Under the pieces are notes generated by a model, which ran no database searches, was not told the origin of the DNA, and saw only the letters and a list, made by a program, of their open reading frames with translations. This document shows positions 59,768 through 64,000 of a stretch of 64,000 nucleotides of DNA, in pieces. Location of the stretch: the NCBI GenBank assembly GCA_030295235.1, contig AP026135.1, positions 620,001-684,000 on the forward strand, written 5' to 3'. Each line of letters starts with the position of its first letter. The first letter of the stretch is position 1. A program made the position numbers and the translations under genes. The DNA comes from Fistulifera solaris. Its lineage: Eukaryota.

Positions 59768-60620
59768 ATACTTGAGTACTTCGGTTTTCGGCAAAGCAAT
59801 GCACCGGTATGAAAGAGGCAGAATCTGCGAATAGAGAATGAATATTCTGTTCGATGAGTCTATACATCCTTTTAATTCAGGCACTTTATCTGAGCGATTG
59901 ACCCTTCAATTTTTATTAGACGACGATTTAGCAATACCCCTCGTTGTTGTCGTCCCTATACACTGTTGGCTAAAACCCTTATTTCGTACATGATTGATTG
60001 GGTTTGGTAACGTGTATCAATTCCTAGGCTCGTTTGGATGGCATTGGTCAAGGATTTGAAGAGTTTCGTCGAATTGGAAGTGTCATCGCTACACAACAAC
60101 ATCATGGGATTCATCACGAGTCCCCCAGTCACACTTTCAGTCACAGATTTTCTGCTCCGAAATAGAATACCGCTAAGACAATTTGGGCCATTTTGTTAAT
60201 CGTGTAGAACCCTCCGCTTTATTCTATATTTAGATCACTGTGTACCGAGTCAAAGATTGTTTCTGGCTCTCGTTGTACACGAAAATATACTGGTGGAAGA
60301 AGTAGTAACGAAGTTTCCGCACTTTCTTTTCCTTCGTGACAGCAAAAGTCAGCCATAAGTGAAAAACCATTGACGAGAAGATCGAACGGAGATCCTTGCA
60401 GCTTTCACATTTGTCAACTACTCCGTAACACTTACTTTATTGATGATAAAACCACCCTTGGACACCAATTGATTAAGCCCGCACTTGATGTTAACCACAG
60501 CGCGTTTTTGCATGATCTGATCCTGGTATAATCTGTTTGAAACAGCGGGTCGCCTGCCCATCGAATTTATTATGGACGTACGAAAAGAATCGCTCCGCAA
60601 CGCCTACGCGGCAGAGTGGG

Positions 60621-61740
60621 ATGCTGCGCTCGCAGCTCAATGCGACCCCACAACGACGCAAACCACTCAACACTTCCACGACAAGAATTTATCGGGCACC
60701 GCAAGCGGCTGTCCGCGACGAGACGGATGGAAAAACGCGGCGCCGACGCCAACCCGAGGATTCGTCTTTCTCGACTTTGGAAGCGCCGTTGGGACGACGA
60801 CTCGGATCGTGGTAATCGATCGAGTCGGAGGAGTTTGACGTTGCGACAGGGATTTGAAGAATTCTCCGAGTCGTTTGTTAACAACAACGATTATGATGAC
60901 TATCACAATGAATATTATGTCGAACCGCGACGCAACTTATGGGTCGTGTTACGAACGACAGTGAATTATCAAACGGCAGTACAAGTCCTTATTTTGCTAG
61001 TCTTTGCCGCCATGATTTTTGATTCCCATTCTCGGGTTCAGAAGCACCGAGTCCAGCTAGCACAGTACGATGAAGAACGAGCGCACATTTTAGAACAAAT
61101 GATGTGGATTGATAAAGCGGCAAAAAAGGTACACCGAAAGTACGCACAAAAAGACATTTGGGAATCATTGGAAGATCAAAAGTTAGAGCACGAATCGCGA
61201 GGGGCGTTGTTGGAAGATACGGAGGGCTTGCGCGATGCCATGAAGAAACTACAGCTGCGTGTGCAACTGAATGCTCGAACACGTATTGAGGATCGTTTTG
61301 GGATCCGTAATGCTTTTATCAATTTAGCATTGGATGAAGAGGGAAAGGAACACGTACAGATTGGATTAACGGATGACACTCCTCATGCCGCCGCTATTTT
61401 GCTGGAACAATACGACCGCCATTTGTGGGACAAAGTGGAGCTACAACGCATCGGTGATGATGTGATACAAATATCCACTGATCAAACAACCACATCACCT
61501 ATTTTAGAATTTATAGAGTCATCGCATTCCTGTCACGAGGTCGGATCGGTAGTGTTGCGGCAATTGGAAGCGGATACGATGGACTTGAATGTAGTGGTAC
61601 TGCGTGTTCATATGACGGAACATGTACCCATGGGCGGGGAAGATGTCTGTATCGGAAAGGTGACAGTCGGTCTTGAGTATCTAAACAAAGAGGGCATACC
61701 TCGCATCCATGAGACGCCACCTAGAGTCTACGCTTCATAA
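60621..61740 (+). CDS. Single-pass membrane protein with coiled coil and degenerate cyclophilin-like C-terminal domain (start uncertain; probable frameshift ~60790)
   Basis: TM AVQVLILLVFAAMIF, coiled coil, then VQIGL..DTPHAAAILLEQ...LWD, ILEFIE and DVCIGKVTVGLE. Confidence 0.6.
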
Positions 61741-62295
61741 GGGGTTTATTTGTCGACTCGCACCTCGACTAAGTAATATAAACTCCTTGTTACCGCCCTT
61801 AGAATACTGTCGTGTTTTCTCTCATGTATAAATTGTTGCACCTTTGGAAAACCCTGCATTTCTCTACTGTAGGCAAGATGTAGCTATTTCTCCTTCGTCA
61901 ACACGTTTTGTTCGGGCGAGTCACGAGTCACGAGTTTCATCCATGATAATCTAACGTAACTATTTACTACTGAGTATTACAGTAGAAGTAGTATCCATGA
62001 CCCTCCACCACGCAGGACGCGCCACGTGACCCCCGAATTCTCAGAACAACCGCAACCTGGGACTCGGTCTATCTGATTTCCGTTGTTTATAACGGTACGA
62101 TGTTCAAGTCGCCGAAAATATTAAACACAATTCCTGTTCATGGCCCGGCGGGCAGGGAAGTTGTGAAGGAAACTTGAATTTTGAAACCGGACCATCACCG
62201 CTCACCCGCGCTAATTTTCTACTCTGCTCGCGGCGCCCAAGAAACAGCCACCACCAAACAATACTGTCATACTTCTCGTTTTCGTTTCACGATTC

Positions 62296-63784
62296 ATGTA
62301 AGTGATGTTCGTTCTTCTTTGTGTGAAAAGCCCCCTGACTTCTTTTGCTTCTCGTAAAACTAACTAATCAATGTGTCGTTGTATTGTTATTCGTCCCCGC
62401 AGGGCTGAACTTTTATCGGACGAAGTCCAATTGGGCTATGCGCTCGAAGCTTTCGCGTATGCGCATCAAATGGGTGTAGGATGGGCCACTTCCAAACTCG
62501 TGTATTTGAAAAATTCCGGCATTAACAATCTCAGTGAACTATCGCTCGGTTGTAAAGAAGATACATTGAATTTAGATCTCGAATTATTCGGTGTACCACC
62601 GGAGGAACTCTTTAGCGCCAAAACACTTCAACGCCTCAATGGCTTTTTTACCGGGTCCGGTGGGCATTCGATGCTTTCGTTTGGCTCAGAAAGCCGCACA
62701 AAAGGTAAAGAAAGGAACTGCCGATACAGAATATGTGCATCGCCCGGAAAATGGCAAAATTGGGGAAGAAGTCTGGTTGACTCCGTCGAATGAAGAATGG
62801 GTCTTGCGCGTCGACTGCGCCGGCTTTGTCCGCAACTGCCTCAAGCACGTGACGAAAGATCCCTTTGTCATGTCACTTAGTGACCGGGATTTCATGCGCG
62901 CCAAGGATTTCTTCACATTCTTCTCCAGTACACCCCATACCGTCATGGACACGGAAGTTATGCCCGAAACGGATCGACGTATGAAATGGCGACAGTTCAC
63001 CGATTTGCGACTCGTCATTCCGGGGGATGTCATCTGTTATCGACCGAAAGGCAATGCAGCCGGGGGTGCCGCCTTTACTTCAAATGATCGAAAGGATCTC
63101 AAGCGGCTATTGAAAGCGGTCAAAACGGCCCAGCTCTGGCATGCAGAAGGGGGGAGCTGGACGAATATGGTAACGCGAAATGTCGCCAAAGACCCCGTGG
63201 TCAAGACGTGGGTCACAAAAGTCAAAACAAAATTAAACGCCATCGATATTCACACCGTCAAACAACTGCATCGGAATCTCGATTCAATTAACAGTAAGCT
63301 CACCTCCCTGGATTACCCCGCTCTGAGTCAAGATACGTTGGATTTGATCCGAGAATGTTGCGAAAGTACTACAGTCAATACTGGGCATATTGTGTTTGCC
63401 GCCGGACCGGCGGTACGGCTAGACGACGATGGTTTGTATCGTATTCGGGTAGTGCACTCGACCAAGTATGGGATTGTGGGGAAGGACGGTCAAAAGACAC
63501 AGGGAGTTCAGGAATATTATCGACGATTCCAGCTTTTACCGAACGGTCGCTGGACGCGACATAAGGAAGTGACCGTAAAGAAGGAAGTCAAAGTAGTCAA
63601 CACGTATGAGAGTGATGGCGAAGATCCCTTTGATGACATGGAAGATGATCCGGAAGACAATGAAGGGAGCGGCAGCGGCACGGAAACGGAAACCGATACG
63701 CCTTCCAATGGTGAAGCGGAGCCAAACGACGATTTATCGGATAAAGACATGGTGGAAGTGATTGTGGCCCGTATGTGTTTTTGA
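62296..63784 (+). CDS. NlpC/P60-like (papain-fold) cysteine hydrolase with duplicated helical module and acidic tail; intron 62298-62402; apparent frameshift in T-run 62644-62649
   Basis: AT|gtaagt...cag|G GCT GAA rebuilds the ATG. Motifs TEYVH, VDCAGFVRNCL, RAKDFF, IPGDVICY, NTGHIVF and IRVVHST. Confidence 0.75.
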
Positions 63785-64000
63785 TTAGTGGTTTCCACTG
63801 AATCATGTCCTGTGTCGTAGACGGAACGAGACATTACCTTAGTAGCTTTTGCAGCATAGAATAGCATAACTATTAGGCCAAACATATCAATTGCTAATTA
63901 GATTTCATTCCTTTAACTCGATTAGGGTCAAACTTGCGTTTTTAGAATTTTAAGATTACTATTCGAATAACCCGGCAGCTTTTCCTCGCGGAACACGACT

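Follow-up and report, generated by a model that had tools for sequence, protein, structure and literature searches.

A gene of the diatom Fistulifera solaris, located at positions 62296-63784 on the forward strand of a 64,000-nucleotide stretch of DNA (GenBank assembly GCA_030295235.1, contig AP026135.1, positions 620,001-684,000; referred to here as the window), is best read as a nuclear diatom gene belonging to a small, unannotated family, the product of which would be an intracellular thiol enzyme of the NlpC/P60 fold acting on a substrate other than peptidoglycan. A probability of about 0.6 is assigned to this reading as a whole. It draws on predicted structures that match NlpC/P60-type domains, on a candidate Cys-His-His active site that is conserved throughout the family, on a profile alignment with the NlpC/P60 domains of Escherichia coli, and on introns within the coding sequences of orthologues. 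The family was concluded to be a new, architecturally unusual and eukaryote-specific variant of a known enzyme superfamily.

Two proteins were modelled with AlphaFold. P0001, the 381-residue open reading frame obtained by standard-code translation of 62639-63784 (forward strand; TGA stop at 63782-63784), was modelled with 41 sequences and gave a predicted local distance difference test score (pLDDT) of 85.2 and a predicted template modelling score (pTM) of 0.83. P0003, the hypothetical protein FisN_36Hh034 of F. solaris (470 residues), is the best database relative of P0001, with 97% identity; it was modelled with 40 relatives (pLDDT 82.3, pTM 0.82). When the P0001 model was compared by VIA-align, without Foldseek, with 48,161 PDB representatives, 26 PDB chains matched at Z >=8. 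Among the 50 fold matches listed, the first 25 (Z 9.2-11.3) bear titles of NlpC/P60, P60 or CHAP domains, endolysins, autolysins or DL-endopeptidases, apart from two uninformative titles (8v3w_H and 7v6s_A). The matches include 8er5_B (Z 11.3, root-mean-square deviation 2.6 Å, 123 of 125 target residues), 7cfl_A (Z 11.1, 127 of 127), LytE (Z 10.6, 118 of 118), NlpC B3 (115 of 115), Trichomonas NlpC1 (6bim_A, Z 10.9) and MepS (8xud_I, Z 9.5). These Z values exceed the 7-8 that is typical of the best VIA-align score for models with no clear Foldseek match; the list holds one fold only, and the independent P0003 model gave the same match list.

Both predicted structures display the features that define the canonical papain-like superfamily, namely an alpha+beta fold, in which the nucleophile helix packs on an antiparallel sheet, and a Cys that precedes the His. 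The models thus support an NlpC/P60-type papain-like fold with the canonical Cys-before-His order, and at the level of the fold the assignment proposed in an earlier first-pass annotation of the window, which had seen an NlpC/P60 cysteine hydrolase in this gene, was borne out. The VIA-align alignments reach from residue 2 to residue 381 of the model, and the domain would accordingly take in the first helix (FLPGP...KVKKG) as well as the last strand (VEVIVARM), with a large helical insert and an acidic linker as predicted excursions from it. No transmembrane helix was predicted in either model. The fold search does not separate P60 from CHAP domains, as CHAP endolysins scored Z 9.4-11.0, yet none of 41 family members has a CHAP match (PF05257) at E <=0.1.

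Translation of the window confirmed the codons of the Cys, PGD, His and VVHST motifs at the positions given in the first-pass annotation. Upstream of P0001, a second reading frame (frame A, 62404-62643) reads AELLSDEVQ...TLQRLNGF and turns to nonsense beyond that point, whereas P0003 continues past the equivalent of frame A as ...RLNGFLPGPVGIRCF, with the fuller junction reading ...TLQRLNGFLPGPVGIRCF.... Frame A and the frame of P0001 (frame B) join in the manner of P0003 if a run of six T at 62644-62649 (T6) is read as five (T5). The frameshift had therefore been placed correctly in the first-pass annotation, since the P0003 reading requires one T fewer. The features of the locus are as follows.

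62296-62297, + strand: "AT" of the start codon, completed by G62403 if the intron is spliced (from the window sequence; uncertain).
62298-62402, + strand: proposed intron of 105 nucleotides (from splice signals in the sequence; unconfirmed).
62371-62373, + strand: alternative in-frame ATG (MCRCIVIRPRRAELL...), the start in the P0003 gene model.
62404-62643, + strand: frame A, N-terminal helical module, apparent copy 1 of a repeated SAM/HhH-like module (P0003 model, pLDDT >90).
62639-63784, + strand: frame B, predicted NlpC/P60-fold domain with insert, acidic linker and last strand, its ATG being in frame through the extra T (translation, model).
62644-62649, + strand: T6 homopolymer, one T beyond the need of the intact frame, a +1 frameshift (comparison with P0003 and contigs).
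62816-62818, + strand: codon of Cys60 (VDCAGFV), the candidate nucleophile, which opens helix 60-72 (DSSP of the model, conservation).
63020-63028, + strand: PGD motif (P128-D130, in PGDVI) at the start of strand 131-137, counterpart of GDLVFF in NlpC/P60 (hhalign, model).
63053-63376, + strand: helical insert of about 105 residues (residues ~139-246), apparent copy 2 of the N-terminal module (hhalign, model).
63386-63388, + strand: codon of His250 (NTGHIVF), the candidate general base, which opens strand 250-260 (model, conservation).
63455-63457, + strand: codon of His273 (VVHST), the candidate for third residue of the triad, within strand 266-275 (model, conservation).
63581-63724, + strand: acidic linker, residues 315-362, predicted to be disordered (pLDDT <50; length differs between relatives).
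63752-63781, + strand: last beta strand and C-terminus (VEVIVARMCF), returning into the fold core (strand 372-379 at pLDDT >90).

Conservation at the putative active site was read from an hmmalign alignment of 181 family proteins, many of which are fragments, so that counts refer to the sequences covering each column. The Cys60 column holds Cys in 122 of 123 sequences and the His250 column holds His in all 137, while His273 is represented by His in 128, Gln in 6 and Glu in 4 of 138. The PGD motif is similarly fixed (G129 in 149 of 150, D130 in 147 of 149), and D59, G62, S81-D82-R83, R87, K89, D90, W117, S274-T275 and R378 (124 of 124) are invariant as well. Residues S81-D82-R83, R87, K89 and D90 belong to a near-invariant, family-specific motif, LSDRxFMRAKDF, which the E. 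coli NlpC/P60 domains lack and which is likely to line the substrate site. Helix-start Cys and strand-start His are the canonical positions in NlpC/P60 enzymes, and DSSP assignment of the P0001 model shows Cys60 opening its helix, His250 opening its strand and His273 lying inside the following one. A candidate Cys60/His250/His273 triad, conserved across the family in the pattern of an active triad, is supported by these models and counts.

No sequence method linked the family significantly to NlpC/P60; such sequence support as there is comes from profile-profile comparison. Four E. coli NlpC/P60 domains, MepS and three paralogues found with PF00877 in the K-12 chromosome, served as the template. 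The MepS homologues retrieved were close orthologues only (79-100% identical) and were unusable for a diverse profile. Once the columns of the insert had been taken out, the profile of the family aligned to the four E. coli domains with an hhalign probability of 79.6% (E 1.5e-5, score 36.8), compared with scores of 11.8 for the reversed template and at most 20.2 among 30 column shuffles. In the confident stretch, DCAGFV is paired with DCSGFV and PGDVICYR with GDLVLFR, and a relaxed extension of low confidence places VVHS-T on FVHAST, and thus His273 on the third His of MepS. Additional removal of the acidic linker gave 73.5%, no gain over 79.6%. The Pfam NLPC_P60 profile was matched below threshold by 2 of 41 members (E 0.0014 and 0.0025; 19 and 18.2 bits), and the protein is accordingly filed under the NlpC/P60 fold and superfamily but left outside the Pfam family in its present definition. 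In the ESM Atlas, the nearest clusters of P0001 by features were unnamed Nucleocytoviricota and Myxococcota clusters (0.86) and NlpC/P60 and CHAP clusters (0.85), all below the 0.9 level; the giant-virus connection at which the first of these hints gained no support from searches of BFVD and IMG/VR.

Other profile matches were few. In Pfam, P0001 has no NLPC_P60 match, and its sole match is to FBO_C, the C-terminal region of F-box only proteins (E 0.022). This sub-threshold match, seen in 3 of 41 members and covering P0001 residues 260-325 (63416-63613), spans the His strands and the sheet that follows, and may be meaningless or may hint at a related sheet in FBO_C. NCBIfam, applied to five members, returned only PTS IIB at E 0.02-0.055, as against a cut-off of 163.6 bits, and this candidate was rejected.

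The insert sets the family apart from its presumed relatives. As had been noticed in the first pass, where about 100 residues were counted, the PGD and the catalytic His are widely separated: some 120 residues lie between PGD and His250, compared with 12 from the D of GD to the His in E. coli MepS, and the insert of about 105 residues is therefore regarded as real. Its origin is suggested by a comparison within the protein, in which the N-terminal module (P0003 residues 13-96) aligned with the insert (236-336) at an hhalign probability of 79.5% (E 1.5e-5, score 31.8, 49 columns), while the reversed template scored 9.3 and the best of 30 column shuffles 20.1; a relaxed alignment extends over 74 columns and includes the first helix. 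Both modules carry the pattern W-x7-L-x3-GI-x-[ST][VM]-x2-L ... N-x2-L ... LS-x2-T[LI]-x2-L. The insert thus repeats the helical module of the N-terminus as its second copy, produced by an internal duplication. It is modelled at pLDDT >90 except for one loop and adjoins the active-site strands. Fold matches of the module, at Z 6.0-6.6 below significance for helical domains, are to a SAM domain (5jti_A, 62 of 63 residues, root-mean-square deviation 2.1), the PolX HhH region and the helical domain of eIF2-alpha; sub-threshold Pfam matches are to DUF4332 (4 of 41 members), SAM_EPH (2 of 41) and IMS_HHH_1 (1 of 41).

The nuclear status of the gene had been deduced in the first-pass annotation from an intron of its own; the status stands, on other grounds, while the splicing of that intron found no confirmation in the read contigs. 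The proposed intron at 62298-62402 has a GTAAGT donor directly after the "AT", a CTAAC-like branch element about 40 nucleotides upstream of the acceptor, a stretch rich in pyrimidines and, as the acceptor, CAG followed by G62403, and its spliced product would begin MAELLSDEVQ. In line with this start, orthologues in metagenome contigs begin MSMLSDE, MPILSEE, MGTFLSDE and MDLSAINGTLTEE, that is, 2-11 residues ahead of a conserved S/T-D/E-E motif. The alternative start at ATG 62371 would yield MCRCIVIRPRR; the extension is argued to be non-coding because 3 of its first 7 residues differ from P0003 (IVI versus NIL), compared with 3% in the rest of the protein. Contigs from four sequencing runs of one study (X1-X4, none recorded as RNA), aligned to 62200-63850, held no spliced joint anywhere in that interval in any of the four runs, and the donor is read through unspliced in X1 record 1 (62200-62448) and X2 record 9 (62200-62318). 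X2-X4, the runs that resemble RNA, have no contig coverage at 62319-62420. The intron is thus plausible but unconfirmed.

Introns in orthologues make the nuclear eukaryotic status independent of the one proposed in the window, as they are of the GT-AG type and lie inside the coding sequence. Orthologues were read in seven related metagenome loci, in three of which the coding sequence is split across frames, and four introns of about 50-110 nucleotides were found in three orthologue loci, at four different, non-shared positions. In L009, GTAAGT...CAG (~2663-2795) lies directly upstream of VDCAGF, and in L010, GTATGT...TAG (~1566-1647) lies downstream of NPFVM. The two introns of L011, GTATGA...CAG (~2581-2702) within MRAK|DFY and GTACGC...TAG (~2820-2896) within PG|D, interrupt the most conserved motifs of the family. 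The coding parts of the window copy, L007 and L008 are free of introns.

The distribution of the family likewise points to eukaryotes. A word-indexed search returned 138 relatives; precomputed Pfam domains are absent from the 120 that were listed. An organism name is attached to four hits, each of them from a diatom (F. solaris, a name starting "Entom", Seminavis robusta and a Bacillariaceae sp.), and the family is annotated only as "hypothetical" or "expressed unknown protein". An exhaustive phmmer search of 1.84 billion cluster representatives gave 75 matches at E <=0.001, none over the Pfam NlpC/P60 cut-off, and when nine divergent members were used for a profile search, no more than three proteins were scored. 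When 185,579 prokaryote genomes were scanned for two or three of the most conserved motifs, tblastn confirmed 0 of 58 candidates, and 0 of 39 were confirmed in IMG/VR; no alignable bacterial homologue was found at the sequence level. The family is eukaryotic. In the literature on NlpC and diatoms, no paper on this family was found among open-access texts.

As to localisation, the first-pass statement that a signal peptide is lacking agrees with inspection of the N-termini, in which no hydrophobic signal can be seen, either for the gene in the window (MAELLSDE or MCRC...) or for the orthologues L007, L009, L010 and L011. Nor did Pfam give a match to a cell-wall-binding domain (LysM, SH3b or similar) in P0001 or the 41 members. 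Because neither a signal peptide nor a cell-wall-binding domain is seen, the protein is proposed to act intracellularly and on something other than peptidoglycan.

The gene exists in diverged forms that bear on its integrity. Runs X1-X4 contain a second gene copy, which differs from the window at 7-9% of positions. Synonymous third-position changes make up 37 of the 40 differences listed between the two copies (there are 31 further), including all four listed in frame A upstream of the T run, and the three amino-acid changes are those that separate P0001 from P0003. By this pattern of substitutions, both halves of the gene have been under purifying selection, and any lesion would be very recent. 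The locus is taken, somewhat more probably than not, for one member of a pair of diverged copies of a nuclear gene of the diatom. Contig depth in X2-X4 is 40-700 across the gene body and 0-5 upstream, a profile that looks like transcription, in runs only guessed to be RNA. As a separate observation, the flanks of the T run (62524-62790) occur in at least three combinations in the contigs (alternative-T5-reference in X2; reference-T5 in X1; reference-T6-reference and T5-alternative in X4), which points either to contigs that mix the two copies as mosaics or to the presence of more than two haplotypes.

The intact protein would have about 460-470 residues and be composed of five parts. A SAM/HhH-like helical module of about 80 residues at the N-terminus would be followed by the first half of the NlpC/P60-type domain, with its N-terminal helix, Cys helix and PGD strand. 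The second helical module would occupy a loop that is about 10 residues long in the bacterial enzymes, and the second half of the domain would then supply the strand with the His, the one with His/Gln/Glu and a further two, before a disordered acidic linker leads to the final strand ending in Cys-Phe. Such a protein would most likely be a thiol hydrolase or transferase, in which His250, oriented by His273, activates Cys60, and Cys60 attacks an amide, isopeptide or ester bond to give an acyl-enzyme, with the two helical modules binding substrate or partner. A far more specific proposal, offered as speculation and quite improbable in its details, would make the protein a eukaryote-specific intracellular isopeptidase or amidase, recruited by its SAM/HhH-like modules to a polymeric partner, whether nucleic acid or protein assembly, where it would remove a gamma-glutamyl-, polyamine-type or ubiquitin-like amide modification; it would then represent a new class of diatom regulatory enzyme that arose without recent bacterial input.

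A number of results weigh against the proposal of an intracellular NlpC/P60-fold enzyme. The gathering cut-off of PF00877 NLPC_P60 (23 bits) was exceeded by none of 41 family members, phmmer and the family profile found no match among PDB sequences, and Foldseek found none at E <=0.001 in PDB or BFVD, where the best P60 row in PDB had an E value of 0.97. The confident part of the hhalign alignment spans only the region from the Cys helix to the PGD strand, its low-confidence part misplaces the first His by three columns, and with the insert kept the probability fell to 14-28% against MepS alone or the four E. coli domains, covering the Cys motif only. The intracellular location is taken solely from inspection of N-termini, and one relative, P0009, has a hydrophobic N-terminal extension. 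The nature of the substrate, a non-peptidoglycan amide, isopeptide or ester, is purely conjectural. Finally, X4 record 25 (62619-62779, 161 nucleotides) matches the window with no differences and no gaps, and so carries T6; on this account a real broken allele in the window copy has to be reckoned with, if as an unlikely state of affairs.

Were T6 real, the window copy would be a pseudogene, with full-length protein made from the P0003 copy only and at most a truncated protein initiated at ATG 62639. Besides the X4 contig and the window itself, this account can appeal to the protein search, which returned no protein identical to the window reading frame, the best being the 97% match. T5, with one T omitted at 62644, is nevertheless present in contigs of all four runs and is the sole form in X1, X2 and X3, where it takes up the whole depth at the T run (33.5 of 33.5, 127.5 of 127.5 and 153.9 of 153.9, respectively), as against 110.5 of 183.3 in X4, and X1 record 2 combines window-type letters with T5. 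The T6 path, moreover, may be rare, because each contig has just one mean depth and no difference between the two copies falls within 62629-62670. The extra T is regarded as a probable assembly error or minor variant, or at the most as a lesion of very recent date, and not as the state of the expressed gene, which makes the pseudogene account a rather unlikely one. An enzyme that has kept the fold as a catalytically dead scaffold, as some NlpC/P60-like proteins have, is harder still to credit and seems most improbable: activity is predicted only, and the large insert adjoins the active-site strands, but the near-complete retention of Cys60 and His250 and the restriction of the third position to His, Gln or Glu form the pattern of an active triad.

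The remaining alternatives keep the enzyme but change its role, and are best judged against known systems. With bacterial NlpC/P60 DL-endopeptidases (E. coli MepS/Spr, Bacillus subtilis LytE, CwlO, Clostridium innocuum CI_01448; PF00877), the diatom protein shares the fold and the order of its elements (Z 9.5-11.3 over 118-131 residues), the D-C-[SA]-G-F nucleophile motif, the G-D strand and an H-[A]-S-T-like motif at the third residue. It differs from them in falling below the Pfam cut-off, in the 105-residue module between the GD and His strands, in the acidic linker of about 50 residues ahead of the last strand, in having no visible signal peptide, lipobox, LysM or SH3b, and in the invariant LSDRxFMRAKDF, and the named members of its family are all diatoms. 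Another likeness is to NlpC1 of Trichomonas vaginalis (6bim), a canonical NlpC/P60 domain in a eukaryote (fold Z 10.8-10.9); the Trichomonas NlpC/P60 genes are reported to be laterally acquired peptidoglycan hydrolases that target bacteria (bioRxiv 10.1101/320382; PMC6299479). By analogy, the window gene could be a horizontally acquired bacterial peptidoglycan endopeptidase or amidase used against bacteria, and indeed its best fold matches are peptidoglycan hydrolases, the Trichomonas enzyme among them, and DCAGFV resembles the DCSGFV of MepS. Unlike the Trichomonas genes, however, those of the diatom family show neither a detectable relative in bacteria nor any visible signal for secretion: no signal peptide is seen in the window or in four orthologous N-termini, Pfam finds no cell-wall-binding domain, no motif candidate survived in the prokaryote genomes, similarity to bacterial enzymes lies below every sequence threshold, and the family motif is missing from the E. 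coli domains. Such an antibacterial role is accordingly judged highly improbable. The first-pass description of the gene as bacterial-type, derived by horizontal transfer and domesticated finds no backing in any sequence search above threshold. Given this, the 0 of 58 prokaryote candidates and the uniformly diatom names, neither donor nor direction of any transfer can be inferred, and because no bacterial donor is identifiable, the gene is not demonstrably a recent transfer.

CHAP amidases share the superfamily fold (besides the endolysins, the glutathionylspermidine/trypanothione amidases 3a30, 2io7 and 2vpm at Z 6.4-6.7); they differ in that none of the 41 family members has a Pfam CHAP match at E <=0.1 and that the diatom nucleophile motif is of the P60 type. 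Glutathionylspermidine/trypanothione amidase is a cytosolic enzyme of this fold that cleaves a non-peptidoglycan amide and offers a precedent for the activity proposed here. Eukaryotic members of the NlpC/P60 superfamily are often lipid enzymes, and LRAT/PLAAT (H-REV107) and PPPDE/DeSI are intracellular eukaryotic members with Cys-His chemistry. A lipid-directed acyltransferase or phospholipase of the LRAT/PLAAT kind, with the C-terminal Cys-Phe as a membrane or lipidation site, would suit an intracellular-looking protein with an NlpC/P60-superfamily thiol active site and a C380 conserved in 112 of 122 sequences. LRAT/PLAAT and PPPDE/DeSI are, however, circularly permuted, with His before Cys, whereas Cys60 stands ahead of both His250 and His273 and no permutation is apparent. 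No LRAT, PLAAT or PPPDE title occurs among the 50 fold matches listed, no transmembrane helix is predicted in the models and the C-terminal strand belongs to the fold core. A lipid enzyme is thus considered quite unlikely, and the possibility raised in the first-pass annotation, that the closest relatives would prove to be LRAT or PPPDE proteins, finds no support in the fold matches or in the order of the residues.

If the proposed intracellular, non-peptidoglycan thiol enzyme is correct, it would extend the superfamily, in which nearly all canonical members are secreted cell-wall hydrolases of bacteria or phages, by a branch that is intracellular and non-permuted, and would illustrate how a domain-insertion architecture can arise by internal duplication. 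The fold assignment, together with the conserved candidate triad, turns an unannotated diatom protein into a testable enzyme with Cys60 as the candidate nucleophile. It also serves as a caution that a bacterial-looking fold in a eukaryote is not by itself evidence of horizontal transfer. In another eukaryotic setting, oomycetes and red algae, an NLPC_P60 domain is reported as a fusion with a solute carrier (PMC5592239).

Some further observations concern relatives and surroundings. The family C-terminus is almost invariably A-R-M-C-F (63770-63781); in the NlpC/P60 domains of E. coli, A-R-R is the invariant ending. A distant relative of 735 residues, P0182, has a different architecture, in which the Cys half (CDCSGFI ... 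PGDVV) lies behind an N-terminal extension of 440 residues with short tandem peptide repeats and a weak match to BspA-type leucine-rich repeats (E 0.0034). Upstream of the gene in the window, a stop-to-stop frame of 399 residues (60541-61740, + strand), with no Pfam match at E <=0.01, contains a hydrophobic stretch and a coiled-coil-like part, and is presumably a separate gene.

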